A stretch of 64,000 nt of DNA from Escherichia phage dhaeg, in the sequence record MN850609.1; one strand, given 5' to 3'. Below the pieces are notes generated by a model that worked only from the letters and a program-made list of their open reading frames with translations, was not told where the DNA came from and ran no database searches. A program made the position numbers and the translations under genes. Below, piece after piece: positions 1,561 through 63,931 of the stretch. The number at the start of each line of letters is the position of its first letter. Position 1 is the stretch's first letter.

Positions 1561-2019
1561 ATGTCAGAAATTAATTCAGAAGTATTCATCCGCCGCAACA
1601 AATTACGTCGTCAGTTCGAAACCGAATTTCGTGAACTTAACGCGTCCATCAAAAAAGCCGCCATTAAGAGCGGTGTCCCAGCTTTCTTTATTAAGTACTC
1701 TAATCACTTGTTGGACCGTGCTATCCAACGTGAAATTGACGAAAAATATGTTTTCTCTTTGTTCAAGAAGCTCCATAATCATGTTAAAGAAATCCATGAA
1801 TTTTTAATCCAGGAGCCTCTTCCTGACATAGAATCTGAAATTGTCCCAGGTAAAGTGTATCGTCCACTGCGTCTCGAGATTACCGATAAAACCTTATGGT
1901 TGGGTATGACCGTAGATCGTAAACATCCTGATAAAGGATATTCATTAAAATGTCGTATGGCATTTGTTAATTCTAAACGTTTAGAAGGTAAAACCAGCAC
2001 GAAAGTAATCTATCTTTAA
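1561..2019 (+). CDS. regB: RegB endoribonuclease (cleaves GGAG in early mRNA Shine-Dalgarno regions)
   Basis: 152 aa; close match from memory to T4 RegB (EVFIRRNKLRR, HLLDRAIQREIDE, RLEITD); synteny upstream of tk. Confidence 0.85.
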   Translation: MSEINSEVFIRRNKLRRQFETEFRELNASIKKAAIKSGVPAFFIKYSNHLLDRAIQREIDEKYVFSLFKKLHNHVKEIHEFLIQEPLPDIESEIVPGKVYRPLRLEITDKTLWLGMTVDRKHPDKGYSLKCRMAFVNSKRLEGKTSTKVIYL

Positions 2020-2928: not shown

Positions 2929-3404
2929 TTATTGATTATATTAAGGGCGATATCGTCGCCCTGTTTCTTCAAGGTAATATTATTGCACACGGGTGCAACT
3001 GTTTTCATACTATGGGTTCAGGTGTGGCTGGTCAATTAGCAAAGGCCTATCCTAAAATATTAGAAATTGATAAGACCACTACTGAATATGGTTCTCGTGA
3101 TAAATTGGGTGATATGTCTATTGTTTTTAAACATAAGCCTAATGGATTTGCAATGTGCTATAATTTATACACCCAATACGAACCAGGCCCTAATCTTGAT
3201 TACGGTGCTTTAGTAAACTGTATGATAGAATTAAATCTACAAGCAAATGACCTTTTGTTTAAACCAAGAATTTATATTCCTCGCATTGGTTGTGGTATTG
3301 CTGGTGGTGATTGGGACAAGGTTTCTAAATTAATCGACATGTTTACTCCTGATATTGATTTAATAGTGGTGGATTATGAAAGCACATTACCCACATCCGT
3401 TTGA
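2925..3404 (+). CDS. macro domain protein (ADP-ribose binding / ADP-ribosylhydrolase fold)
   Basis: 159 aa; Gly-rich macro motif NCFHTMGSGVAGQLAKAYP; ATGA overlap upstream. Confidence 0.6.
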   Translation: MIIDYIKGDIVALFLQGNIIAHGCNCFHTMGSGVAGQLAKAYPKILEIDKTTTEYGSRDKLGDMSIVFKHKPNGFAMCYNLYTQYEPGPNLDYGALVNCMIELNLQANDLLFKPRIYIPRIGCGIAGGDWDKVSKLIDMFTPDIDLIVVDYESTLPTSV

Positions 3405-3588
3405 CCCTAAAAATAAAGCTGAAATTATTCGGCGCTGGACTGAAACTCGAGTAACCAAATGCCCTATAAAAAGTCAGCATAACACCGATAAATGGTATAT
3501 TGGTGAATATGTTGAATATACTTTTATAGATAAAAATAAACGTAAACAGCATGTAGAAGAATATTGCTTAAAGGTACAATGGTTATGA
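3376..3588 (+). CDS. hypothetical protein
   Basis: 70-aa ORF overlapping macro gene end; GGTGG RBS. Confidence 0.3.
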   Translation: MKAHYPHPFDPKNKAEIIRRWTETRVTKCPIKSQHNTDKWYIGEYVEYTFIDKNKRKQHVEEYCLKVQWL

Positions 3589-6876: not shown

Positions 6877-7437
6877 ATGATTATTGAAACATCTGGGCTG
6901 TTTGGTGACCTGACTGCTGAAGTAGTTGATAATGCAATTGTGCTTTCACAAGAAGACGATAAAATCGTACTGACTATCCAAGATATCAAGCCGCTTTATG
7001 ATTTAAAGGTTTTGGACAAACACGAATATCTTAATGGCAGATTTAGAGGTGTATTTGATATTAATGATGGTTTATGGGCCCAGATTTATAACCATGACAA
7101 AGGGTTTAATTTGGAAACAGACGGAGAATGTCTGAGCATTAGCGATTCTAGTAATTTCTTTAAATGTATTTTTAAACTGTTCCAGGAAGAATGCAAGCCG
7201 GAAGTTGAATGGAAAGTCCCTGGTCAAGATGCCGTAATTCGTTCTAGTGAAACATTTGAAGGTGATGAAGAAGAAATGGATTATGATACCGAACTAACCG
7301 TGTATCAACACCAGGGCCGTGATTTGCTATCCTTGGTCCAAAGACACGACGGTGAAAATGAAGTTGTATTTACGAAGGACGAGCTAAAAGTTTTAGTATC
7401 TTATCTGAACTCTGTTATCCCAACTATGAACTCTTAA
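6877..7437 (+). CDS. hypothetical acidic protein
   Basis: 186-aa ORF with GAGGAACGGAAA RBS. Confidence 0.5.
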   Translation: MIIETSGLFGDLTAEVVDNAIVLSQEDDKIVLTIQDIKPLYDLKVLDKHEYLNGRFRGVFDINDGLWAQIYNHDKGFNLETDGECLSISDSSNFFKCIFKLFQEECKPEVEWKVPGQDAVIRSSETFEGDEEEMDYDTELTVYQHQGRDLLSLVQRHDGENEVVFTKDELKVLVSYLNSVIPTMNS

Positions 7438-8906: not shown

Positions 8907-9102
8907 AGAAGAAATCAAGGTTTTCCTGTCATATGGAAGACCTCATAAAACCTGTCGTTGGTATCTTGAAGTAGTTTGTAGAGAAACCGGTAGACGAATC
9001 AATTTCAAGTACGTATGCAAGCCTACGTCTAAGCAGATAAGACGGTGTATTAACTGGGCTATCAATAATATCCGCTTCCATAATTATTGGAGCGCAATTT
9101 AG
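8878..9102 (+). CDS. hypothetical basic Cys-containing protein
   Basis: 74-aa ORF overlapping end of upstream gene; stop abuts terminator. Confidence 0.3.
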   Translation: MTTTTLITAKEEIKVFLSYGRPHKTCRWYLEVVCRETGRRINFKYVCKPTSKQIRRCINWAINNIRFHNYWSAI

Positions 9103-9124
9103 GAACCTTCGGGTTCCTTTTTTT
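9102..9124 (+). terminator. rho-independent terminator (GGAACC-TTCG-GGTTCC + T7), copy 1 of repeated cassette
   Basis: perfect hairpin plus T-tract; identical hairpin at about 43401 and 63909. Confidence 0.8.
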
Positions 9125-13205: not shown

Positions 13206-13235
13206 GTTTACATCCAAGGACGGATGGAGTATAAT
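13206..13235 (+). promoter_or_regulatory. early promoter (GTTTAC / TATAAT)
   Basis: GTTTAC, 18-bp spacer, TATAAT. Confidence 0.55.
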
Positions 13236-14716: not shown

Positions 14717-14980
14717 ATGTTTAAAGTTTATGGTTACGATTCAAATATTCACCGTTGTGTTTTCTGTGATAATGCCAAACGTCTACTTGATGTTAAGAAA
14801 CAACCTTACGAATTCATTAACGTGATGCCGGAAAAAGGTGTATTTGATGATAAGAAGATTGCTGAACTCTTGGCTGCTCTTGGTCGTGAATCTCAAGTAG
14901 GTTTGACCATGCCTCAGGTATTTGCTCCTGACGGAACTTCTATTGGTGGCTTTGACCAACTGCGAGCATATTTCAAATGA
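14717..14980 (+). CDS. nrdC: glutaredoxin (NrdC-like)
   Basis: 87 aa; CVFC active site; C-terminal GGFDQL typical of glutaredoxins. Confidence 0.75.
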   Translation: MFKVYGYDSNIHRCVFCDNAKRLLDVKKQPYEFINVMPEKGVFDDKKIAELLAALGRESQVGLTMPQVFAPDGTSIGGFDQLRAYFK

Positions 14981-15144
14981 TTGAATTATTGTTGGGTATT
15001 TTGTATCTTATCATCGGTATTGGTTATGCTAAGACCCTAGCTAAATTAGATGATTTCGGTGCAGGTGACTTTTGTTGGTGGCTGACGTCTATGATTTGTT
15101 GGCCTTTATTTCTGGTTGGTGCTTCATTCTGGAACTTTAAATGA
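14977..15144 (+). CDS. small hydrophobic membrane protein (unlisted ORF)
   Basis: 55 codons read by hand; ATGA overlaps at both ends. Confidence 0.35.
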   Translation: MIELLLGILYLIIGIGYAKTLAKLDDFGAGDFCWWLTSMICWPLFLVGASFWNFK

Positions 15145-15495: not shown

Positions 15496-15525
15496 GTTTA
15501 CAACGATTCCGAAATAGAGTATAAT
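15496..15525 (+). promoter_or_regulatory. early promoter (GTTTAC / TATAAT)
   Basis: GTTTAC, 18 bp, TATAAT. Confidence 0.5.
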
Positions 15526-15739: not shown

Positions 15740-15815
15740 TGAAAACTTCTACTGTAATCTTGTGCTTATGGGGAATTTTTAATTTGGGTATGCTTGTTTA
15801 CTTGGTGGGTCAATT

Positions 15816-15992
15816 ATGAAAACTAAATTAGTCTATACTGAAAAGTTAAATGGTGACAAGGTCTGGAAACTTCTTATCAAAGGAAGTCCTACCGACCAGT
15901 TTATGGCCACCTGTATAGGGTTGTATACCCGTCCTACCAAAAAGATGATTCGTCAATTTAAACGGTTGCATCGCTCATTTTATAATGTTTAA
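15816..15992 (+). CDS. hypothetical small basic protein (unlisted ORF)
   Basis: 58 codons read by hand; coupled via 26-codon hydrophobic mini-ORF 15739-15819. Confidence 0.3.
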   Translation: MKTKLVYTEKLNGDKVWKLLIKGSPTDQFMATCIGLYTRPTKKMIRQFKRLHRSFYNV

Positions 15993-17430: not shown

Positions 17431-17459
17431 GTTTACTTCCTCTCCTCACGTGTTATAGT
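17431..17459 (+). promoter_or_regulatory. early promoter (GTTTAC / TATAGT) with 13-bp spacer/SD inverted repeat
   Basis: TCTCCTCACGTGT vs ACACATGAGGAGA. Confidence 0.6.
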
Positions 17460-18351: not shown

Positions 18352-18552
18352 ATGAATCCTGAATCTAAATTATCACAACGAATTGCTGAAGCCCGTCGTC
18401 AGTTCTTTGAAAATATGATAGCCCAAGGTATTGATGACGAAGTTTTTCTAAACTGGTTTTGGAATAACAAATATTCAAAATGCTCAGGAGCAATATTGAT
18501 ATCAGCCGCGATGATGTATGAAGGCTGGAAAGGCGCCAAAGCACAAAAATAG
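18352..18552 (+). CDS. hypothetical protein
   Basis: 66-aa ORF. Confidence 0.4.
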   Translation: MNPESKLSQRIAEARRQFFENMIAQGIDDEVFLNWFWNNKYSKCSGAILISAAMMYEGWKGAKAQK

Positions 18553-18581
18553 TTTACAAACTCTTGGGACCAGAGTATAAT
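18552..18581 (+). promoter_or_regulatory. early promoter (GTTTAC / TATAAT) with palindrome GGGACCA/TGGTCCC bracketing the -10
   Basis: GTTTAC, 18 bp, TATAAT; perfect 7-bp inverted repeat. Confidence 0.6.
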
Positions 18582-18620
18582 GGTCCCACGGATTATAAAT
18601 TTTAAACTGAGGAAATTATT

Positions 18621-18950
18621 ATGTCACAAGCTATTAAAAACGTACTGAACTCTTTCGCTTTCGATAAAGTTAACGAACTGATGAAAACCGGCTTTGTAAC
18701 TCCTCAGGTTCTTGACCAATGGGTTGCTGAACTGTTACCAATCATGCACTCTAAAGACCAAAAAATTGGTAAGAACGGTATTCGTGAAATCCTGGTTCAA
18801 TATATTCTCGACGAGTTTGATGTGGCCGCCTTTGGTGTCGAATCTAAAGCTTGGCAGCCGGGTGAAATCACAGACAAAACCATCCGTCGTATGAAGAATC
18901 AACGTAAGAAAAAATTCGTTGACCTGAAAATTGTTAAGGCTGCTAAATGA
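18621..18950 (+). CDS. hypothetical protein
   Basis: 109 aa; shares TIR and first codons (MSQAI) with gene at 11188. Confidence 0.5.
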   Translation: MSQAIKNVLNSFAFDKVNELMKTGFVTPQVLDQWVAELLPIMHSKDQKIGKNGIREILVQYILDEFDVAAFGVESKAWQPGEITDKTIRRMKNQRKKKFVDLKIVKAAK

Positions 18951-21151: not shown

Positions 21152-21313
21152 ATGGATTTTGATAAGATTAAATCTGACAAAAATGAGATGATACTTAAAT
21201 TTGAAGCTGCTCGTATTAAAGCGGAAAATGAAGGTACTATTACTTATAAGAAAATCAAGTTCAGGTCTTCTCATGAACCTCTGTATGGCGTATTAATTGG
21301 TAAAGGAGCTTAG
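21152..21313 (+). CDS. hypothetical small protein (unlisted ORF), preceded by two tandem 8-codon mini-ORFs
   Basis: 53 codons read by hand; stop lies in terminator stem. Confidence 0.3.
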   Translation: MDFDKIKSDKNEMILKFEAARIKAENEGTITYKKIKFRSSHEPLYGVLIGKGA

Positions 21314-21324
21314 GCTCCTTTTTT
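21303..21324 (+). terminator. rho-independent terminator
   Basis: GGAGC-TTAG-GCTCC plus T6. Confidence 0.7.
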
Positions 21325-21337
21325 GCTTTCTGAATGG
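21314..21337 (+). promoter_or_regulatory. candidate middle-type promoter for gene 47 (TGCTTTC box + TAAAAT)
   Basis: MotA-box-like motif 11 nt upstream of TAAAAT. Confidence 0.3.
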
Positions 21338-21370
21338 ATGATAAAATAGATTTAATTAAGCGAGGATATT

Positions 21371-25710: not shown

Positions 25711-25716
25711 AGCATA

Positions 25717-25733
25717 GGGAGGAATTTCCTCCC
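25717..25733 (+). other. stem-loop GGGAGGA-ATT-TCCTCCC between clamp and clamp-loader genes
   Basis: perfect 7-bp inverted repeat, no T-tract, directly before TATAAT. Confidence 0.45.
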
Positions 25734-25771
25734 TTGGAGTATAATGTAAAAACAAACCTGAGGAAATTAAT

Positions 25772-27880: not shown

Positions 27881-27884
27881 GCAA

Positions 27885-27905
27885 AGGGACTTCGGTCCCT
27901 TTTTT
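27885..27905 (+). terminator. rho-independent terminator
   Basis: AGGGAC-TTCG-GTCCCT plus T5; overlaps -35 region of polymerase promoter. Confidence 0.7.
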
Positions 27906-27963
27906 GGAGTATAATGATTCATCAACAAACAAAAGACAATCACTCGTCTATAAAGGAAATGAA

Positions 27964-37549: not shown

Positions 37550-38973
37550 AAACTATTTTGGCTCAACTGCTAGGCAATAGTGATTATTTCACTAAGGTCT
37601 GGCCTTATATGAATGATTCTTATTTTGACCAGGGTCCGGCAAAGACCCTTTTCAAAGAAATAAAAAAACATGTCAATGAATATAATGCGGTGCCTTCTAA
37701 AAATGCTTTGAGTATTGCATTAGATAACAGCACCCTTTCAGAAGTTGAACACCAAGGAGCTAAAGAGCTTTTAAATTCTCTGAATGCAGGCCCTGAAGAC
37801 CAAGAATGGTTGGTTAAAGAGACAGAGAAATATGTTCAGAAGGCAGCGATGTATAATGCCACTTCAAAAATTATTGAAATTCAAACTAATGCCGACCTTC
37901 CGGTTGAGCAACAAAATAGAAAACTCCCAGGTATTGGTGCCATTCCGGATATCATGCGCGATGCATTATCGATTTGTTTCGATTCTGAATTAGGCCATGA
38001 CTGGATGGATGACTATGAAGAACGTTTTAAAAGTTATTCTGATAAAGCCCGTAAGGTTCCATTCCGTCTTAATATTCTGAATAAGATTACCAAGGGTGGC
38101 GCTGAGTTTGGTACTGAAAACGTATTGTTGGCAGGAACAAACGTAGGTAAGTCTCTTGGACTATGTTCATTGGCTGCTGATTACCTTCAATCCGGTTATG
38201 ATGTTCTTTATATCTCCATGGAGATGGCAGAGGAAGTATGTGCTAAGCGTATCGATGCCAACCTTCTGGATGTATCACTGGATGATATTGATGATGGTCA
38301 CGTCTCATGGCCTGAATATAAAGCTAAGATGGATAAGTGGCGTTCAACTGCTACTTTAGGTCGTTTAAAGATTAAACAGTACCCTACTGGTGGTGCTAAT
38401 GCCGATACATTCCGTGCATTATTAAACGAATACAAGCTCAAACAAAACTTTGTCCCACAGGTCGTTATCGTCGACTACTTGGCTATCTGTGCTTCATCTC
38501 GTACGAAAGTTTTCTCTGAAAACAGTTACGGATTGATTAAGATGGTTGCCGAAGAACTACGTGGCCTTGCAGTAGAGAAGAAATTATTGCTGTGGACTGC
38601 AGCCCAGACTACTCGTGGTGCGAATGTTGCGGCCGAAATCGATATGGCCGATATTGCTGAATCCTTTGGTATTGCACATACGGCAGACTTCATGTTAGGT
38701 GTGGTCGAGACAGAAGAGTTTGCTCAGATGGGTATGCAGATGGTTAAGCAGCTTAAATCTCGTTATGGCGATAAGAGCTACTACAACAAATTTAAGATTG
38801 GTGTTAAGAAAGGAAACCAGCGTTGGTATGAAGTTGAAGACGATTCTAACCCAGGTCCAGTGAACACCGTTCGTGAGGCTACAGGTGAAATGAACCGCCA
38901 AGCAGAGGTCAATCGCCAGTCGCGTGTTAATAGAAGCGATTTAGACGATTTAGCAGCATCTATCAAATTTTAA
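37543..38973 (+). CDS. 41: replicative DNA helicase gp41 (DnaB-like)
   Basis: Walker A GTNVGKS; similarity recalled to T4 gp41; GTG start after GAGGTGG RBS (listed ORF begins 37534). Confidence 0.85.
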   Translation: MVETILAQLLGNSDYFTKVWPYMNDSYFDQGPAKTLFKEIKKHVNEYNAVPSKNALSIALDNSTLSEVEHQGAKELLNSLNAGPEDQEWLVKETEKYVQKAAMYNATSKIIEIQTNADLPVEQQNRKLPGIGAIPDIMRDALSICFDSELGHDWMDDYEERFKSYSDKARKVPFRLNILNKITKGGAEFGTENVLLAGTNVGKSLGLCSLAADYLQSGYDVLYISMEMAEEVCAKRIDANLLDVSLDDIDDGHVSWPEYKAKMDKWRSTATLGRLKIKQYPTGGANADTFRALLNEYKLKQNFVPQVVIVDYLAICASSRTKVFSENSYGLIKMVAEELRGLAVEKKLLLWTAAQTTRGANVAAEIDMADIAESFGIAHTADFMLGVVETEEFAQMGMQMVKQLKSRYGDKSYYNKFKIGVKKGNQRWYEVEDDSNPGPVNTVREATGEMNRQAEVNRQSRVNRSDLDDLAASIKF

Positions 38974-38993
38974 GGAGCTTCGGCTCCTTTTTT
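38974..38993 (+). terminator. rho-independent terminator
   Basis: GGAGC-TTCG-GCTCC plus T6. Confidence 0.75.
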
Positions 38994-41115: not shown

Positions 41116-41141
41116 TATAATGGCTCTATTAATTTAGAGCC
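41116..41141 (+). promoter_or_regulatory. extended -10 promoter (TGATATAAT) followed by hairpin GGCTCTA/TAGAGCC upstream of primase
   Basis: TGnTATAAT then 7-bp inverted repeat. Confidence 0.45.
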
Positions 41142-43394: not shown

Positions 43395-43400
43395 TTATAA

Positions 43401-43422
43401 GGAACCTTCGGGTTCCTTTTTT
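43401..43422 (+). terminator. rho-independent terminator (GGAACC-TTCG-GGTTCC + T6), copy 2
   Basis: identical hairpin to those at 9102 and 63909. Confidence 0.8.
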
Positions 43423-45276: not shown

Positions 45277-45304
45277 TTTACACCTCCTCCCTTCATGTTA
45301 TAAT
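45276..45304 (+). promoter_or_regulatory. early promoter (GTTTAC / TATAAT)
   Basis: GTTTAC, 17 bp, TATAAT; ACCTCC in spacer complementary to downstream GGAGGT SD. Confidence 0.6.
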
Positions 45305-49331: not shown

Positions 49332-50002
49332 AAGATATAATTATTGACTTCGAAACCTTTGCTACTACTCAAAATGCGGCGGTTATTGACCTCGCCGTAA
49401 TTGCTTATGACCCCAATCCAGAGGTAGTAGAATCTTTTGAAGAGCTTACACAACGCGGCCTTCGTATTAAATTCGATTTGGCTTCTCAACGTGATAAACG
49501 TCTGTTCTCTAAAAGCACATTGCAGTGGTGGAAAGAACAAGGACCTGAAGCACGTAAAAACCTGGCTCCGTCTGAAATTGATGTGAGTACTTCTATCGGC
49601 CTTGGTAATTTCTTGGAATACTGCCGTAAAAACGAAGTGGACCAATGGAAATCCCAGATGTGGTGCCGTGGAATGTCCTTTGACTTTCCGATCTTAGTGG
49701 ACCTTATTCGCGATGCTTATCGTTCTGAAGGTGTTCCTGAGAACGAAATCGATACAACTAAGTTGGAACCGGTTAAATTCTGGAACCAACGTGATATCCG
49801 TACAGCTATTGAAGCGTATTCACTGACACGCGGATTGAGCATGTGCCCTCTGCCTAACGGAACCTTGAATGGCTTTGTTGCTCACGACTCTATCCATGAC
49901 TGTGCTAAGGATATCTTGATGCTGAAATATGCCCAACGATATGCTTTAAACCTGGAAGATGTTCCTGAGTATCCAGACCCATTAAGTATAAAAAATCGGT
50001 AA
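49328..50002 (+). CDS. dexA: exonuclease A DexA (DnaQ-like 3'-5' exonuclease)
   Basis: 224 aa; DEDD-type motifs FETF, HDSIHDC; synteny after dda. Confidence 0.7.
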   Translation: MKDIIIDFETFATTQNAAVIDLAVIAYDPNPEVVESFEELTQRGLRIKFDLASQRDKRLFSKSTLQWWKEQGPEARKNLAPSEIDVSTSIGLGNFLEYCRKNEVDQWKSQMWCRGMSFDFPILVDLIRDAYRSEGVPENEIDTTKLEPVKFWNQRDIRTAIEAYSLTRGLSMCPLPNGTLNGFVAHDSIHDCAKDILMLKYAQRYALNLEDVPEYPDPLSIKNR

Positions 50003-50006
50003 AAGT

Positions 50007-50035
50007 GTTTACTTCTCCTCATGACATGATACTAT
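50007..50035 (+). promoter_or_regulatory. early promoter (GTTTAC / TACTAT) with perfect spacer/SD inverted repeat CTCCTCATG/CATGAGGAG
   Basis: GTTTAC, 17 bp, TACTAT; 9-bp inverted repeat. Confidence 0.65.
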
Positions 50036-50061
50036 AACCCTATCAACATGAGGAGAACAAA

Positions 50062-50565
50062 ATGAAAATTTATCGAGTCGAGTCATCGTTCAGTATCTTA
50101 GATAATAGTGATGCTATCGCAATTACTCGCCAGCAATGCCGCCAATTAACACCTTATAGAGGCTCATTTGATGAATGGAGCGAAGGCTGGTTATTGGAAG
50201 TAGGTTTTGACAGGCCTAATTTTAGACACCATCATACTAATAATAAAAGCATCCCACTACCAAGTCAAGATGAATTGTTGGTTAAAAATTCTAATGCAGT
50301 AATTAAAACCAAATTCGAACATGAAGATTATAAAGGTGTAGATAACTATATCCCTGGTTGGTTTGTTAACCTCTACCATTTTGCTTTTGCCAGCGAGTAT
50401 GATATGATGCGCTGGTTCACTCGTGAAGAGCGTGCGGAATTATCTTCTAAAGGATTCTACCTTGCTGTTTACGAAATCCCTGAAGATGAGGTTGTCATTG
50501 GTGACCGCCAAGTAATGTTCCGCAAATCCCATGCTGAACTCGTAGATTTTATTGAAATGAGATAA
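50062..50565 (+). CDS. hypothetical protein
   Basis: 167-aa ORF. Confidence 0.5.
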   Translation: MKIYRVESSFSILDNSDAIAITRQQCRQLTPYRGSFDEWSEGWLLEVGFDRPNFRHHHTNNKSIPLPSQDELLVKNSNAVIKTKFEHEDYKGVDNYIPGWFVNLYHFAFASEYDMMRWFTREERAELSSKGFYLAVYEIPEDEVVIGDRQVMFRKSHAELVDFIEMR

Positions 50566-50567
50566 TT

Positions 50568-51119
50568 ATGAAATTTAATTATAATCCTAAATACACACCG
50601 AACCCAGCAGCCAAATTGATTGATTTTGATGTTTTAAGCACTTATGTGGCCCCTATTGAACCATTAGAAATTAAGGAAACCACTATGACTACTCAGACTA
50701 TCGAAATCGGCAAAACCTACAAACTGGTTGAACCTGAAATTAAAACTAAGGCCTTGATTTCTGGTTATAAAACTCTGACTGATGTTTTTGGCGAAGGCGA
50801 ATTTATTGTTGAAGAATTCGCCAAAAGTGACTGGTTTACTAAATCTTACGTAATCCACGGCCGCCGGTTAGATAATAATAGAATAGAGAAAACCCTAGTC
50901 TATGAAGCTGAATTTGGGCTTTTCCGTGAAGTCAGAGTCGAACAAGACCCTACCGACCTGTTGTGTGCTGCTGTGGCTATCCGTCGTCCTTTTGATAATC
51001 CTATCTGTGGTTGGGTAACAGACCAATGGATTGAAGATGGTGTTGAACTGCTGAACGTTGTACATGCTGGTGATTTTAGCATAGTACCTCGTAGTGCAGT
51101 GGTTAATGTATTGAATTAA
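50568..51119 (+). CDS. hypothetical protein, paralog family member A
   Basis: 183 aa; C-terminal TDQWIEDGVELLNVVHAGDF shared with next gene. Confidence 0.5.
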   Translation: MKFNYNPKYTPNPAAKLIDFDVLSTYVAPIEPLEIKETTMTTQTIEIGKTYKLVEPEIKTKALISGYKTLTDVFGEGEFIVEEFAKSDWFTKSYVIHGRRLDNNRIEKTLVYEAEFGLFREVRVEQDPTDLLCAAVAIRRPFDNPICGWVTDQWIEDGVELLNVVHAGDFSIVPRSAVVNVLN

Positions 51120-51121
51120 TA

Positions 51122-51150
51122 GTTTACTTTATCGAGAGCCATGTTATAAT
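51122..51150 (+). promoter_or_regulatory. early promoter (GTTTAC / TATAAT) with palindrome GAGAGCCAT/ATGGCTCTC bracketing the -10
   Basis: GTTTAC, 17 bp, TATAAT; perfect 9-bp inverted repeat. Confidence 0.6.
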
Positions 51151-51192
51151 GGCTCTCATGGATTATAAACCTTTAACCAAGAGAGAAAAATT

Positions 51193-51759
51193 ATGATTAC
51201 TATTTCCGATATCGGCAGTATCGTTCGTGTATCCAAAAAGTCTCGTTCAAAAGCTGCGGGCAGTTTAGTTGAAGTTGTTAGCATCCAACTTAAAGAAGGT
51301 GTCAGTGAAGAAAATTATGAAGTAAAAGTTCGTATCATTCCTAAAAATCGCCAGACTGAAACTCAATTCGGTTATGTGCGTGCTAAATTCTTGGAATCGA
51401 CTGAATTTACCGGATACATCGCTCCTGTAGTTGAAGAAGTTGAATCCCATGATGGGTATGTATGTGAAAGCAATGATATCCGTGGCGTAGTAGCTCAAGA
51501 CATTGAAACTATTGACCAATCTCATGTCGGCGTTGATTTCAAATGGAAATTAGGTCGAGGAGTGTGTTTTAATACTCCTAAACCGTTCAAATATGTTGAC
51601 GAACCTTTTGGTACTTACGAAACCAGTAGCATGTCTGGTTACATCACAGACCAGTGGGTTGAAGGTGGCGTTAAGCTCTATAACATCGTGTTCCTTGGAA
51701 CCTTTAAAGTGGTTCCTGAAAGCTTTATTGTTGAATATGCTAATATTCATCGTGCATAA
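51193..51759 (+). CDS. hypothetical protein, paralog family member B
   Basis: 188 aa; C-terminal TDQWVEGGVKLYNIVFLGTF shared with upstream gene. Confidence 0.5.
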   Translation: MITISDIGSIVRVSKKSRSKAAGSLVEVVSIQLKEGVSEENYEVKVRIIPKNRQTETQFGYVRAKFLESTEFTGYIAPVVEEVESHDGYVCESNDIRGVVAQDIETIDQSHVGVDFKWKLGRGVCFNTPKPFKYVDEPFGTYETSSMSGYITDQWVEGGVKLYNIVFLGTFKVVPESFIVEYANIHRA

Positions 51760-51772
51760 AGTTTAAAAACAG

Positions 51773-51801
51773 TATACAATACGGTAGGGTAGTGATACTA
51801 T
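51773..51801 (+). promoter_or_regulatory. early-type promoter with degenerate -35 and conserved TGATACTAT -10 block
   Basis: GTGATACTATTACCCTATCAAC. Confidence 0.35.
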
Positions 51802-51831
51802 TACCCTATCAACAAATGAGAGGAAAATAAA

Positions 51832-52050
51832 ATGGCTAAAGTTACTGTGAACTCGACTCGTGAAGAATTTGAAGATGTTCTGTTCAACCCTGATTTAATC
51901 GTGGTTCAAAAGGAACATTCTGATACGTTTTCTCATTTATCGTCGGTTTATGTATACGAAAATCAAGGTGATAAAAACCCTATATATGCAGTGTTCCGTG
52001 AAATCACTGCTGAAGGCACCGACTTCTGGAAGGAAACTTACAATGCTTAA
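51832..52050 (+). CDS. hypothetical protein
   Basis: 72-aa ORF. Confidence 0.45.
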   Translation: MAKVTVNSTREEFEDVLFNPDLIVVQKEHSDTFSHLSSVYVYENQGDKNPIYAVFREITAEGTDFWKETYNA

Positions 52051-52480
52051 TCAAGAACTCGAATTTGAAAAAGGTAAATGGTACTATTTTAAAGATGATG
52101 CTGCAGAAGCTGAATTCCGTAAGCTGAATTCCCATAATATTAGGACTCCTAATAATTCTTCTATAGCAGATATTATTGTCAATTCTGAAGGTTTTTGCCC
52201 TGTTAGATTAGCGGCAGGATATGTGATGAACGTAGACTTGGCTTATGGCGATAACATTGATATGGTTTTATATCCAAGCGAGCGTAAATTCTTTACGGAA
52301 ATGGTTGTAGTTGACAGTGAAGACGAATGGGCCGAAGATGGTTTCTCTGAAGACGAAGACCAGTCTGAAGATGCGGCTCCATTTGAACCGAGTGATTTCC
52401 CTTTGACTAAAATCACTATCTCTAATAATTCTGAAGCCTGGACTGTTTACCAGATGCTAAAAGCTCACTTTAAGGAATAA
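52043..52480 (+). CDS. hypothetical acidic protein
   Basis: internal ATG (ATGCTTAA overlap) of ORF 51950-52480. Confidence 0.45.
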   Translation: MLNQELEFEKGKWYYFKDDAAEAEFRKLNSHNIRTPNNSSIADIIVNSEGFCPVRLAAGYVMNVDLAYGDNIDMVLYPSERKFFTEMVVVDSEDEWAEDGFSEDEDQSEDAAPFEPSDFPLTKITISNNSEAWTVYQMLKAHFKE

Positions 52481-52481
52481 T

Positions 52482-52658
52482 ATGCCACTTTATGATTACA
52501 AATGCCAATCCGAAGACTGTGCAAAAGAATACGAAAAAATCAAGAAAATCTCTGAAAGAGATAATGATATTTGTCCTGATTGCCATAGGCTGGCTGTTCG
52601 GTTAGTCTCGGCCCCTAAACATGTTAATGGCGGTTTTTACGACCTGCTGACTAAGTGA
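52482..52658 (+). CDS. FmdB-family zinc-ribbon protein (unlisted ORF)
   Basis: 58 codons read by hand; MPLYDYKCQ...C...CPDC. Confidence 0.45.
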   Translation: MPLYDYKCQSEDCAKEYEKIKKISERDNDICPDCHRLAVRLVSAPKHVNGGFYDLLTK

Positions 52659-52664
52659 GAAATT

Positions 52665-52925
52665 ATGAAATACGTTAATCGTTCTATTGCAGCTCTGGTA
52701 CTAGCAGTTTCGTTGGTTGGTTGTACTGATGCCGATAATGCCGCCCGTGTATTGGATGCAAATGGCTACAAACAAATCCAAATCACAGGATACAACCTAT
52801 TTGGCTGTTCTGAAGATGATTTCCAACGTACAGGCTTTATTGCTGTAGGTCCGACAGGTAAAAGGGTTGAAGGAACAGTTTGTTCTGGGTTATTCTTTAA
52901 AAAGTCGACCATCCGATTTGATTAA
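52665..52925 (+). CDS. lipoprotein
   Basis: 86 aa; signal peptide with lipobox LVGC. Confidence 0.5.
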   Translation: MKYVNRSIAALVLAVSLVGCTDADNAARVLDANGYKQIQITGYNLFGCSEDDFQRTGFIAVGPTGKRVEGTVCSGLFFKKSTIRFD

Positions 52926-52941
52926 GGGCTTCGGCCCTTTT
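52926..52941 (+). terminator. terminator-like hairpin (GGGC-TTCG-GCCC + T4)
   Basis: short GC stem, UUCG loop, short T-tract. Confidence 0.5.
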
Positions 52942-52991
52942 ATGCTTTAAGTGAAATGGGATAATATTCTCCTACTACATGAGGAAATAAC

Positions 52992-54809
52992 ATGATTAAG
53001 AATGAAATTAAAGTACTGTCCGACATTGAACATATCAAAAAACGTAGTGGGATGTATATTGGCTCTAGTGCTAATGAAGCCCATGGTCGATTCCTGTTCG
53101 GTAATTTTACACAGGTGAACTATGTTCCAGGGCTAGTTAAATTAATTGATGAAATCATTGATAACTCTGTCGATGAAGCTATTCGTACTAATTTTAAATT
53201 CGCAAACAAAATTGATGTCCGAATTAAGAATAATCAGGTTTCAGTTTCTGATAATGGCCGTGGTATTCCACAAGCAATGGTTACTGACCAAAACGGTGAA
53301 CAAATTCCAGGTCCTGTAGCTGCATGGACTATTCCAAAGGCTGGTGGTAACTTTGGAGATGACGCAGAGCGTAAGACAGGTGGCATGAATGGTGTCGGTA
53401 GTAGTTTAACTAATATCTTCTCCGTTTTGTTCACAGGCATCACCTCTGATGGTGAGAATGAGATTACTGTTAACTGTTCTAACGGAATGGAAAACAAAGG
53501 TTGGACTACTAAGAAATCCAAAGATAAAGGCACTTCGGTTATATTCACTCCAGACTTTAACCATTTCGAAGAAAATAGTTTGACCCAAATTTATCTGGAT
53601 ATTACTTTAGATCGTCTTAAAACCCTAGCTGTAATTTATCCTAGTATCCAATTTACTTTTAATGGTAAAAAAGTAGATGGTAACTTTAAAAAGTATGCTA
53701 ATCAATTTGGTAAAGATGTAGTAATTCAAGAAACCGATAATGTCTCAATGGCATTTACTACATCTCCAGATGGTTTCCGTCAACTGACTTATGTAAACAA
53801 TATCCACACTAAGAATGGTGGTCACCACGTTGAATGCGTATTCGATGATATTTGTGAACACCTTCTGCCAGGCATTAAAAAGAAATATAGAGGAATTGAA
53901 GTAACAAAGGCTCGTGTTAAAGAATGCCTTACGATGGTAATGTTCATTCGTGATATGAGTAATATGCGTTTTGATTCCCAGACTAAAGAGCGTTTGACGT
54001 CACCATTCGGTGAAATTCGTAATCATATTCAAATTGATGCAAAGAAAATCTCACAGTATATTCTTAAAGACGAAGGGCTTATTATGCCTATCGTCGAAGC
54101 TGCTTTAGCACGTAAATTGGCAGCCGAAAAAGCAGCAGAAACAAAAGCCGCTAAGAAAGCTTTGAAAGCTAAGGTCCATAAGCATATTAAAGCCAATATG
54201 TACGGTAAAGATGCCGATACAACTCTGTTCTTGACTGAAGGTGATTCGGCGATGGGTCCTTTCATTGAAGTACGTAATAAAGACCTTCAAGGTGGTTATC
54301 CATTACGTGGTAAGGTTATGAATACCTGGGGTATGCCTGCAGTTGATATCATGAAGAACAAAGAATTGTTTGATATCTGTGCAATCACTGGACTGGTTAT
54401 TGGCGAACCTGCAGATAAAACTAACTATCGTAATATCGCTATTATGACCGATGCCGATGTGGATGGTACAGGCTCGATTTATCCATCATTGTTAGCCTTC
54501 TTTAGTCAATGGCCTGAATTATTCGAACAAGGCCGAGTACGATTCTGTAAAACTCCTGTAATTATTGCTCAGATTGGTAAAGAACAAGAATGGTTTTATG
54601 ATGTCCCTAGTTATACCAAAGCTAAGGACTCTCTACCAAAACATTCTATTCGTTATATCAAAGGACTAGGTTCTCTTGAGAAGGCTGAATACCGTCGAAT
54701 GATTCAAGACCCTAAATTTGATGTAGTTCAATTGCCTGAAGATTGGAAAGAACAGTTCGAAATGCTCCTCGGGAACGACCCTCAACTCCGTAAGGCCTGG
54801 ATGTCGTAA
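52992..54809 (+). CDS. 39: DNA topoisomerase II large subunit (gp39 with gp60-equivalent C-terminus as a single ORF)
   Basis: 605 aa; GHKL ATPase and Toprim motifs; N-terminus MIKNEIK.LSDIEHIKKRSGMYIGS as recalled for T4 gp39; continuous frame. Confidence 0.9.
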   Translation: MIKNEIKVLSDIEHIKKRSGMYIGSSANEAHGRFLFGNFTQVNYVPGLVKLIDEIIDNSVDEAIRTNFKFANKIDVRIKNNQVSVSDNGRGIPQAMVTDQNGEQIPGPVAAWTIPKAGGNFGDDAERKTGGMNGVGSSLTNIFSVLFTGITSDGENEITVNCSNGMENKGWTTKKSKDKGTSVIFTPDFNHFEENSLTQIYLDITLDRLKTLAVIYPSIQFTFNGKKVDGNFKKYANQFGKDVVIQETDNVSMAFTTSPDGFRQLTYVNNIHTKNGGHHVECVFDDICEHLLPGIKKKYRGIEVTKARVKECLTMVMFIRDMSNMRFDSQTKERLTSPFGEIRNHIQIDAKKISQYILKDEGLIMPIVEAALARKLAAEKAAETKAAKKALKAKVHKHIKANMYGKDADTTLFLTEGDSAMGPFIEVRNKDLQGGYPLRGKVMNTWGMPAVDIMKNKELFDICAITGLVIGEPADKTNYRNIAIMTDADVDGTGSIYPSLLAFFSQWPELFEQGRVRFCKTPVIIAQIGKEQEWFYDVPSYTKAKDSLPKHSIRYIKGLGSLEKAEYRRMIQDPKFDVVQLPEDWKEQFEMLLGNDPQLRKAWMS

Positions 54810-55005: not shown

Positions 55006-55009
55006 TTAA

Positions 55010-55027
55010 GGGCCTACGGGCCCTTTT
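55010..55027 (+). terminator. terminator-like hairpin (GGGCC-TACG-GGCCC + T4)
   Basis: GC-rich stem plus short T-tract. Confidence 0.55.
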
Positions 55028-60250: not shown

Positions 60251-60280
60251 GTTTACATCTCAGATTTAGCATGTTATAGT
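60251..60280 (+). promoter_or_regulatory. early promoter (GTTTAC / TATAGT)
   Basis: GTTTAC, 18 bp, TATAGT. Confidence 0.55.
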
Positions 60281-60558: not shown

Positions 60559-60587
60559 GTTTACATCTCCATTAGACATGATATTAT
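60559..60587 (+). promoter_or_regulatory. early promoter (GTTTAC / TATTAT) with perfect spacer/SD inverted repeat CTCCATTAG/CTAATGGAG
   Basis: GTTTAC, 17 bp, TATTAT, AGACCTATCAACT. Confidence 0.65.
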
Positions 60588-60994: not shown

Positions 60995-61339
60995 ATGTCT
61001 AAAATCTTTTTTGGTAATGCTAAGGTAATGTTCTTTAAACAACTCAGCCTTCAGGATGCATCGGTGGCATTCAATCAAAGTATGATTCCCGGCGTACATT
61101 CAAAGATTATGACGAGTGCTGATTTCGTTTTCGTTCAAGACCCGGAAACAGGCTTTTATCGGTTCATTAAATTTCGTATGAGTATGGACCCTGGTTATCA
61201 TAGTGCTTACTACGTGAGTTATGAAAACGTTATCAAAGAACTACGTGATACTTACGGACAGGCTTTGAACCCACTGAACAAGGTTTATAATGCTCCCTTT
61301 TATACTAGCGGATTTATTTTAGAACAGCTACAAAAATAG
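60995..61339 (+). CDS. hypothetical protein
   Basis: 114 aa; GAGGAAATTATC RBS. Confidence 0.5.
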   Translation: MSKIFFGNAKVMFFKQLSLQDASVAFNQSMIPGVHSKIMTSADFVFVQDPETGFYRFIKFRMSMDPGYHSAYYVSYENVIKELRDTYGQALNPLNKVYNAPFYTSGFILEQLQK

Positions 61340-61367
61340 TTTACAACCTCGAGAATCATGTTATAAT
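61339..61367 (+). promoter_or_regulatory. early promoter (GTTTAC / TATAAT) with inverted repeat CGAGAATCAT/ATGGTTCTCG bracketing the -10
   Basis: GTTTAC, 17 bp, TATAAT; 10-bp repeat with one G-U-compatible mismatch. Confidence 0.6.
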
Positions 61368-61416
61368 GGTTCTCGTTGACTGGATAACAAAACATTAATC
61401 TACTGAGGAAATTGAT

Positions 61417-61866
61417 ATGAATACTTATATGACTCGTCGTAACGTTCTGTCTGCCGGTGCTACTACTGTTGCTTATGTTAAGAATGGCGAATACCAAAAT
61501 GGTAAGCCTTCTAAAGAAATCTCAGCCCAGCCAGGGTTCTACTTCTTTGTTAAAGGTGAAGCAGATTCTCGCGTCGTAGCTGCACGCTTTTATGTCGGCA
61601 ACCAACGTTCAGCTCAAGGTCTTGATGGTATCGTGGCTAACATTCGTAAGAAACGTTCACAATCAGCTCGCACTATGGCAGTGAATGGTGTTGTGTATGA
61701 AGTTCTTTATGTACCAGCTTCTAAAATGAAACCTCTGACTACAGGTTTTGGTAAGGGTCAAATTGCAATGGCTTTTACTCGCAACCATAGTTCCGACCTT
61801 CAGACACTGGAAGAAATGAACCGCATGTTGGCTGATAACTTTAAATTCGTTCTACAGAGTTATTAA
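61417..61866 (+). CDS. hypothetical protein
   Basis: 149 aa; conserved TIR ACTGAGGAAATTGATATG. Confidence 0.5.
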
Positions 61867-61867
61867 T

Positions 61868-62041
61868 ATGAGAACGTTCTTTGTAATGGGTTATCTATTT
61901 GTTTTAGCTTTATTAGTAGTTACCGGAGCCTTTATGGCTTTCGGTATGCCCTTTAATGATAAAGTTGCCGTCATGATGTGTTTATGTGGTGGTTATATCT
62001 GTTTTGAATGTTTATGCAAAATGTGTGGTATCTATGAGTAA
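61868..62041 (+). CDS. small Cys-rich membrane peptide (unlisted ORF)
   Basis: 57 codons read by hand. Confidence 0.3.
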
Positions 62042-62093
62042 TTTCCATAACGAACATGTGATGCAGTTCTATCGTAACAATCTTAAAACTAAA

Positions 62094-62108
62094 GGCGTCT
62101 TCGGACGC
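62094..62108 (+). other. UUCG stem-loop without T-tract abutting next RBS
   Basis: GGCGTC-TTCG-GACGC followed by TAATGAGGAAAATATG. Confidence 0.45.
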
Positions 62109-62121
62109 TAATGAGGAAAAT

Positions 62122-62286
62122 ATGGAACCGGTATTTAGATTCATTTATATGATTGCTGTAATGATATTGGTAATTCTTTTCGTCGCCGGTATTTTCGTTC
62201 CGCCTGTATGGTTTGCTTATTTCTTATGCGGATGGTTTACAATCGACGCTTTTGTTAAATTCATGGCTTCGTTGGTAGAAAAATGA
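62122..62286 (+). CDS. small membrane peptide (unlisted ORF)
   Basis: 54 codons read by hand; GAGGAAAA RBS. Confidence 0.35.
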   Translation: MEPVFRFIYMIAVMILVILFVAGIFVPPVWFAYFLCGWFTIDAFVKFMASLVEK

Positions 62287-63807: not shown

Positions 63808-63908
63808 GCCTTGGAATCGAGTTCTTGTTACTCTGTATCTTTGCTGTTATCCTAGGCCTGGCGACAGGCTTAGCTATAGGTTTAATAGCAGCTCACTTTA
63901 AAAAGTAA
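63804..63908 (+). CDS. small membrane peptide (unlisted ORF)
   Basis: 34 codons read by hand; ATGA overlap with gp52. Confidence 0.3.
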   Translation: MSLGIEFLLLCIFAVILGLATGLAIGLIAAHFKK

Positions 63909-63931
63909 GGAACCTTCGGGTTCCTTTTTTT
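63909..63931 (+). terminator. rho-independent terminator (GGAACC-TTCG-GGTTCC + T7), copy 3
   Basis: identical to hairpins at 9102 and 43401. Confidence 0.8.

Follow-up and report, generated by a model that had tools for sequence, protein, structure and literature searches.

The promoters of three early genes of a JS98-like T4-type phage, motB, 55.2 and ndd, each contain a stem-loop that surrounds the -10 box and is followed, 1-6 nt 3' of the hairpin, by a GGA(U/G) motif with an A-rich tail that matches the RegB/S1 cleavage consensus. These hairpin/promoter units are members of the PeSL (promoter-early stem-loop) cassette family of T4-type phages (Arbiol et al., 2010, PMC2839356; Comeau et al., 2014, PMC4122927), and the "second promoter class" with a hairpin that an initial annotation of this DNA had set apart essentially rediscovers the PeSL design. 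We consider it probable, with some reserve, that the stem-loop is an RNA boundary element (an attenuator and/or a barrier to 3' exonucleases) in a PeSL-type cassette beside a RegB site; both the boundary or barrier role and the coupling to RegB are what we infer.

The window, by which we mean the whole stretch of 64,000 nucleotides of Escherichia phage dhaeg that was analyzed (MN850609.1), derives from a JS98-like phage (Dhakavirus) and covers the early region. Positions 50000-53000 are 100% identical to Escherichia phage CLB_P2, and the remaining compared parts show ~98% identity to that phage. The cassettes with hairpins starting at 51134, 18565 and 61350 serve motB (51193..51759, + strand, PF17613), 55.2 (18621-18950) and ndd (61417-61866), respectively. 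Early promoters are located further upstream, at 50008 for motB, at 17432 for 55.2, and at 60252, 60560 and possibly 60967 for ndd. The window also contains regB (1561..2019, + strand; PF10715, E = 2e-69), encoding the endoribonuclease that is proposed to cut just 3' of the hairpins.

In the motB cassette the -35 element GTTTAC (51122..51127, + strand) overlaps the upstream stop codon TAG (51120-51122), the 5' arm GAGAGCCAT (51134..51142, +) lies in the promoter spacer, the -10 box TATAAT (51145..51150, +) is preceded by TGT (extended -10), and the 3' arm ATGGCTCTC (51149..51157, +) forms the discriminator and ends at ~+1. The resulting hairpin (51134-51157) is a perfect stem of 9 bp with a 6-nt loop, of which the first two 3'-arm bases (51149-51150) are also the last two of the -10 box; the promoter scan placed this promoter at 51123-51150, with 10/12 matches plus the TG. 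The 55.2 cassette has its GTTTAC at 18552..18557 (+), within TAGTTTAC and overlapping the upstream stop codon, and its hairpin TGGGACCA-GAGTATAA-TGGTCCCA (18565..18588, +; arms 18565-18572 and 18581-18588) is a perfect stem of 8 bp with an 8-nt loop, enclosing the TATAAT at 18576-18581. For ndd the -35 element (GTTTAC, 61339..61344, +) is likewise found within TAGTTTAC, and the hairpin CGAGAATCAT-GTTATA-ATGGTTCTCG (61350..61375, +; arms 61350-61359 and 61366-61375) has 10 bp, including one T.G (U.G) wobble, around the TATAAT at 61362-61367. TAG overlaps the -35 box in 3/3 cassettes, the hairpin starts ~12 nt past the upstream stop codon, and a ribosome-binding site (GAGG/AGAGAG) with an ATG follows 35-55 nt downstream, such that all three cassettes are intergenic units flanked by a stop codon on one side and a ribosome-binding site and start codon on the other.

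The four inverted repeats of the initial annotation are thus present at the places claimed, with the 55.2 arms starting at 18565. Their description as perfect holds for 51134 and 18565; the ndd stem contains a U.G pair and is therefore not a perfect DNA palindrome. The -10 hexamer had been placed in the loop, which is mostly accurate, except that its last one or two bases fall in the 3' arm. The 3' arm had also been expected to form the first nucleotides of the transcript, and here the geometry indicates otherwise: given the usual 7-nt distance between -10 box and start in canonical sigma-70 promoters, the arm would be the discriminator, from -8 to ~+1, and the start site the last base of the 3' arm or just beyond. 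As the promoter's own transcript would start at the end of the 3' arm, both arms are expected only in read-through RNA from upstream promoters.

The fourth repeat, the related primase hairpin GGCTCTA-TTAATT-TAGAGCC (41122..41141, +; arms 41122-41128 and 41135-41141, 7 bp), directly follows a TATAAT at 41116-41121 without a GTTTAC -35 box and ends 2 nt before the primase ribosome-binding site. It is conserved in another genus as GGCCTTA/TAAGGCC, with two compensatory pairs. RegB acts poorly on GGAA, the sequence that follows it (Durand et al., 2006, PMC1702504), and a RegB-like motif is for this reason regarded as absent at this hairpin.

The sequence TTTAC-N15-21-TATAAT occurs seven times in the window against 1.03 expected, a number reached in 0/100 shuffles, and 6/7 of these promoters are on the + strand and intergenic. 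A 38-nt segment was folded for every TATAAT of the window, 86 sites over both strands, and the motB, 55.2 and ndd sites were the top three, at -16.5, -16.0 and -13.3 kcal/mol, compared to a mean of -3.0 kcal/mol (sd 3.1) for the 86 sites and -8.3 for the fourth best. Stable hairpins are present in 3/6 of the + strand TTTAC-N-TATAAT promoters vs 0/80 other sites (hypergeometric p ~2e-4). Comparison with shuffled sequence, the check that the initial annotation had proposed, shows that the hairpins exceed chance, with dinucleotide-shuffle Z-scores of -4.9, -4.1 and -2.9; a cruder shuffle of the flanks, with G.U pairs allowed, gave p = 0.012, 0.034 and 0.005. A chance origin of the hairpins is ruled out by the rank of the folds and by both kinds of shuffle.

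A wider background was obtained by searching a viral contig collection for the patterns GTTTAC-N-TGTTATAAT and GTTTAC-N-GAGTATAAT, with at least 225 unique matches listed; these matches serve only as a background set, since most were chance matches in unrelated viruses. Among the 225 unique matches listed the mean was -3.4 kcal/mol, and 11/13 sites at or below -10 kcal/mol were T4-like cassettes of the family described here. In viral contig L220 (IMGVR_UViG_2751185645_000003), from which T4-like cassettes are absent, a 12-bp stem TTTCGTGCTCTT..AAGAGCACGAAA encloses a promoter-like site of the GTTTAC-N-GAGTATAAT type.

The hairpin is not a general property of the TATAAT class, as had been suggested, but of only 3/6 promoters: no hairpin bracketing the -10 box was found at 15497, only a weak hairpin of 5 bp is present at 13207, and the promoter at 45277 has instead a downstream hairpin over its ribosome-binding site. 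With half of the class lacking it, the hairpin is unnecessary for promoter function or for every gene boundary.

Conservation of the stem was assessed in the upstream regions of motB, 55.2 and ndd orthologues in viral contigs (those of motB located by tblastn), together with cassettes from the pattern search among the matches listed. This yielded 20 distinct cassettes, from the three loci and several genera, that align gap-free on the -10 box. The arms include GAGAGCCAT, GGGACCA, GGGAGCA, GGGGCCA, GGGGTCA, GAGGACA and CGAGAATCAT, among others, and a single pairing register applies to 20/20 cassettes, with the symmetry axis between bases 1 and 2 of TATAAT. In the core of 8 pairs ~98% of the cells are paired, and changes on both sides are seen in 7/10 pairs. 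The covariation score is 0.586, against 0.271 in shuffles (0/500 of which reach 0.586) and at most 0.28 in slid controls, in agreement with the earlier claim that the arms differ while pairing is preserved. Because the cassettes are related by descent and copying, these cell counts overstate the number of independent events; selection for pairing is nonetheless clear from the many different arm sequences and the slid controls.

The imperfections of the stems indicate on which molecule this selection acts. In the core of the 20 cassettes the non-Watson-Crick cells comprise 19 G.U on the sense strand and 0 A.C, with the G.U wobbles distributed over at least seven different columns and several loci; four other mismatches sit at stem ends. 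The + strand fold is more stable than that of the - strand in 20/20 cassettes, by a mean of 3.3 kcal/mol. That every non-Watson-Crick core pair is G.U and none is A.C points to a structure selected in sense RNA, and the asymmetry is what is expected for selection on a single-stranded molecule of the sense strand; it misfits a cruciform or an operator.

An inverted repeat that functions in DNA, as a cruciform, through altered promoter melting or as an operator for a dimeric protein, was among the roles initially put forward. That the repeat keeps one register with respect to the -10 box throughout the cassettes would fit such a role, and the PeSL authors speculated on a DNA-binding protein that targets the stem-loops. 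However, the imperfections are all G.T on the sense strand, the - strand fold is the weaker one throughout whereas a cruciform needs both strands, and the hairpin persists in relatives that lack the -10 box or the entire promoter. Arm sequence varies freely from one cassette to the next, which leaves no common binding site; the initial annotation was correct that no common protein site is evident. Moreover, cruciforms do not form readily from stems of 8-10 bp whose loops span 6-8 nt. Together, these observations make a DNA-level role very improbable.

Several relatives document this persistence. One orthologue (L041) has kept a GAGGAC-ctagt-GTCCTC hairpin and lost the -10 box, a group of others (L065-L070) has kept a hairpin GGCCGC..GCGGCC before ndd, and a third group (L026-L032) as well as T4 itself has a UUCG-loop hairpin before 55.2 (GGGC-UUCG-GCCC in L026-L032), followed by a U tract. 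In L041, L026-L032 and L065-L070 the hairpin and a GGA(G/U) A-rich motif are retained despite the absence of the -10 box or of the entire promoter. The 55.2 leaders of other genera (L025, L036, L039, L040, L042 and L044-L055) contain TTTGCTATAG.., which resembles a MotA-box middle promoter; there a hairpin brackets a TAnnnT -10 box, again with variable arms (e.g., ATAGAGAT..ATCTCTAT and TAGCCAT..ATGGCTA).

A structure that acts in RNA between two cistrons could be purely a terminator or attenuator, as in the original PeSL proposal, with the embedded promoter restarting transcription and RegB having no part. One phi1 PeSL stem-loop lowered lacZ expression to an extent similar to that seen with the rrnB T1 terminator, and it is the only stem-loop subjected to a test of this type in the parts of that study considered here (PMC2839356). 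Consistent with this reading, the T4-like phages mentioned above have the canonical GGGC-UUCG-GCCC hairpin with a U tract at the orthologous 55.2 position. Within the window, UUCG-loop hairpins with U tracts are found immediately upstream of GTTTAC early promoters at 9101-9118, 38972-38989, 43399-43418 and 63907-63926; at 55008-55025 a UACG-loop hairpin without a U tract has the same location. In contrast, the stems of the three cassettes are followed by AUGGAUUAU, CGGAUUAUA and UUGACUGGA, and the missing U tract makes intrinsic termination doubtful and excludes a canonical intrinsic terminator. The terminator scan returned 0 terminators in the motB cassette region (50900-51300), the only cassette scanned. 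The promoter-less L041 and L065-L070 keep hairpin and GGA motif, again with no U tract; what is conserved is a hairpin with GGA(G/U) rather than a hairpin with a U tract. We therefore regard a pure terminator as unlikely, albeit as an alternative to be taken seriously.

The GGA(G/U) motif is the second feature on which the boundary-element reading depends. The motB leader carries GGATTATAAAC (51160..51170, + strand), a GGAU with an A-rich tail that is orthologous to GGAGUAUAAAA of T4 motB; the corresponding sites are GGATTATAAAT (18590..18600, +) in the 55.2 leader and GGATAACAAAA (61382..61392, +) in the ndd cassette, and GGAUUAUAAAC and GGAUAACAAAA are candidate RegB/S1 substrate RNAs. The tails match the consensus at 5/7 (51160), 5/7 (18590) and 7/7 (61382) positions, and the GGA motifs are unpaired in the predicted folds. 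Orthologues have GGAGAATAAAC, GGAGTATAAAA, GGATAATAAAA, GGAGCACAAAA or GGAGTAGAAAA at the same place, with GGAU and GGAG alternating, and promoter-less orthologues also carry the GGA motif. The stable + strand hairpins of the window have such a motif within ~10 nt in 6/81 cases vs a background of 1.2% (Poisson tail ~5e-4).

In T4, strong intergenic RegB/S1 sites follow the consensus GG*AGRAYARAA, and GGAU is cut less well by RegB than GGAG, most T4 GGAU sites being resistant (Durand et al., 2006, PMC1702504). That the window sites are GGAU, and that two of the three tails match at only 5/7 positions, are the weak points of a RegB reading. Nevertheless, RegB does cut two GGAU sites in T4, and only two, one of them in ORF 55.2, and the T4 motB site is a model RegB/S1 substrate with demonstrated cleavage in T4 (Durand et al., 2006, PMC1702504). 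The T4 55.2 leader reads hairpin-UUUUU-GGAUAAUAAAA. Which of its two GGAU motifs is cut may be deduced from the strict A-rich tail of cleaved GGAU sites, and GGAGUAUAAAA is taken to be the model site since positions U5, U7, A9 and A10 of the "motB RNA" substrate match, both on the basis of the parts of that paper used here (PMC1702504). Judged by their sequence, the GGAU motifs of the window are probable RegB sites.

Similar combinations occur elsewhere in the window. Two hairpins that precede genes 44 and 43, AGGGAGGA-att-TCCTCCCT (25716-25746) and AAAGGGAC-ttcg-GTCCCTTT (27883-27914), are each followed by (T)GGAGTATAATG, which may represent either a RegB-like site or a middle-promoter -10 box. 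At 21302-21346, GGATGATAAAA comes 14 nt after AAAGGAGC-ttag-GCTCCTTT, a terminator-like hairpin that has a T tract; the tail of GGATGATAAAA matches the RegB consensus at 7/7 positions.

A processing site for RNase III or another enzyme in read-through RNA was also among the roles suggested in the initial annotation. Phage intercistronic hairpins can be RNase III sites, e.g., in T7, and the present structure would indeed form only in read-through RNA. RNase III normally needs a duplex of roughly two helical turns, however, and the stems are just 8-10 bp with no extended duplex; no Rfam family match was found anywhere in the window, and the conserved neighboring motif is of the RegB type. The part of the suggestion that survives is an RNA structure beside a processing site, namely a RegB-type one, and RNase III itself is a most improbable candidate.

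The boundary-element reading can be combined with the promoter architecture as follows. The stem-loop would be written into promoter positions without consensus, the only free sites of a very compact intergenic cassette; as the spacer holds the 5' arm and the discriminator the 3' arm, the loop falls on the -10 box. The stem-loop would act as sense-strand RNA, formed only in transcripts that read through from an upstream early promoter, and would mark and protect the point at which the upstream message ends, as an attenuator of transcription, as a block to 3'-to-5' exonucleases, or as both. The single-stranded GGA(U/G) 1-6 nt on could then be cut by RegB together with ribosomal protein S1, which would separate the motB, 55.2 or ndd RNA from the protected RNA upstream. 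RegB leaves a 3' phosphate, which is attacked by RNase II and RNase R, and by PNPase after the phosphatase of PNK has acted, and a 5'-OH end that is converted by PNK for RNase G/E. The downstream part would be exposed to this PNK/RNase G/E decay pathway, and a hairpin a few bases before the cut may protect the message on its 5' side during shut-off of the early gene that follows.

More tentatively, and with the balance of probability somewhat against it, the hairpin and the GGA(G/U) A-rich site could be one conserved two-part RNA module of Tevenvirinae early promoters, serving as a built-in shut-off timer. RegB/S1 would cut 3-8 nt past the hairpin, the upstream 3' end would be protected and the downstream early message degraded. 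The promoter's own transcript, with a predicted start 1-7 nt before the GGA, would lose its 5' triphosphate through this cut as well and be opened to PNK and RNase G/E. Were this true, motB, 55.2 and ndd could be shut off without harm to their upstream neighbors, and if the coupling is real it would explain how T4-type phages shut off single early genes within long polycistronic transcripts whose other members are not destabilized.

Several known systems share features with these cassettes. Intrinsic terminators and intercistronic stabilizer hairpins of bacteria also place a GC-containing hairpin just past a stop codon, between cistrons; in the window the hairpins differ in having no U tract, in being superimposed on a promoter and in being followed by a nuclease site. 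In T4 gene e-type regulation, a hairpin hides the ribosome-binding site in read-through RNA and the RNA of an internal promoter is translatable (reviewed in PMC3014915). The window cassettes share with this system a promoter inside an RNA structure that is formed only by upstream transcripts, whereas the 3' arm in the gene e type includes the ribosome-binding site and those of the three hairpins stop 20-35 nt short of the Shine-Dalgarno sequence. A role in hiding the ribosome-binding site was accordingly rejected for the three hairpins; such hiding is a trait of a different promoter class. The + strand promoters at 1505, 10546, 17432, 39004, 50008 and 60560 mostly have a TACTAT -10 box (TATAGT at 17432, TATTAT at 60560) followed by AGACCTATCAAC, and their spacer pairs with the Shine-Dalgarno region in long-range stems, as in TTCTCCTCATG..CATGAGGAGAA at 50008 (-18.6 kcal/mol). 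In this class read-through RNA would hide the ribosome-binding site, and also a GGAG RegB-type site, and the promoter's own RNA would not.

The closest relatives of the cassettes are in T4 and the PeSL family. Upstream of T4 motB is GTTTACAAACTCTTGGGACCAGAGTATAATGGTCCC-GT-GGAGTATAAAA, the same hairpin, followed by GUGGAGUAUAAAA; its first 38 nt, counting the preceding TA, match the 55.2 cassette of the window exactly, while its position is orthologous to that of the motB cassette, which has other arms (GAGAGCCAT/ATGGCTCTC) and the site GGAUUAUAAAC instead of GGAGUAUAAAA. This 38-nt cassette, TAGTTTACAAACTCTTGGGACCAGAGTATAATGGTCCC, is at 18550-18587 in the window and at ~7160-7200 on the - strand in T4 (L312; NC_000866). 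Also in T4, at ~20588 on the - strand (L323), the -10 box TATAGT of the promoter upstream of dmd is enclosed by a 10-bp stem, GACAAGACTA/TAGTCTTGTC (-20.2 kcal/mol). Reverse-transcriptase stops were mapped at the motB promoter by Durand et al. (2006, PMC1702504), and the portions of that paper used here leave the T4 motB hairpin undiscussed.

Different flanking genes around an identical 38-nt cassette fit cassette mobility, and PeSL cassettes have been proposed to mediate modular shuffling (PMC2839356, PMC4122927). It could be argued that the cassettes are mainly recombination linkers, with the hairpin serving recombination or being a passenger, as in that model. The sharing of TAGTTTACAAACTCTTGGGACCAGAGTATAATGGTCCC by two loci, the different cassettes at orthologous sites and several indels in small-ORF regions relative to the closest relative are in line with this. 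Compared to CLB_P2, indels or replacements in such regions are found at 1290-1498, 3379-3580, 14980-15141, 15747-15816, 21329-21369, ~57991 and 61867-62279, and some breakpoints abut cassettes (1498 by the promoter at 1505, 21329 by the hairpin at 21302-21321). Yet homology for recombination would reside in the conserved promoter parts and not in the arms, which vary; moreover, the changes are compensatory and specific to the sense strand, which shows that the pairing itself is under selection. Linker function is compatible with a role in RNA, and we find it improbable as the main explanation.

PeSL cassettes are intergenic and run from the stop codon of one gene, across an AT-rich stretch, a strong early promoter and a stem-loop, to the ribosome-binding site and start codon of the next, as in the window. 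The three cassettes have both the strong sigma-70-type early promoter (-35 box, spacer of 16-18 nt, -10 box) and the stable stem-loop by which a PeSL is recognized, and a stem-loop over the -10 box, as seen here, is one of the two commonest arrangements (PMC2839356). PeSLs are repeated many times among small, non-essential early genes and are shared by different loci in related phages; in the window, the scan gave 27 candidate + strand promoter cassettes, ~20 of them just upstream of a gene start, and PeSL-like sequences had been noted in JS98 (PMC2839356). The hairpins located just before GTTTAC promoters may be seen as a version of this cassette design with the stem-loop placed before the -35 box. 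There are also differences: the phi1/RB49 cassettes have stems that are mostly polyG/polyC and a TTGACA-type promoter, whereas the window has varied arms and the T4-type GTTTAC -35 box, and the PeSLs of T4 and PST are drawn with stem-loops just upstream of the promoter, whereas those of the window surround the -10 box. Neither a link to RegB nor the sense-strand G.U signature appears in the portions of the PeSL papers on which we draw (PMC2839356, PMC4122927). Thus, the hairpins bracketing the -10 box in this JS98-like phage are no new kind of element and take their place in the PeSL family, to which our analysis makes two additions beyond what those parts of the PeSL and RegB papers contain: selection for pairing in the sense strand only, and the regular occurrence of a RegB-type site after the hairpin, a combination that includes the classic motB substrate of T4.
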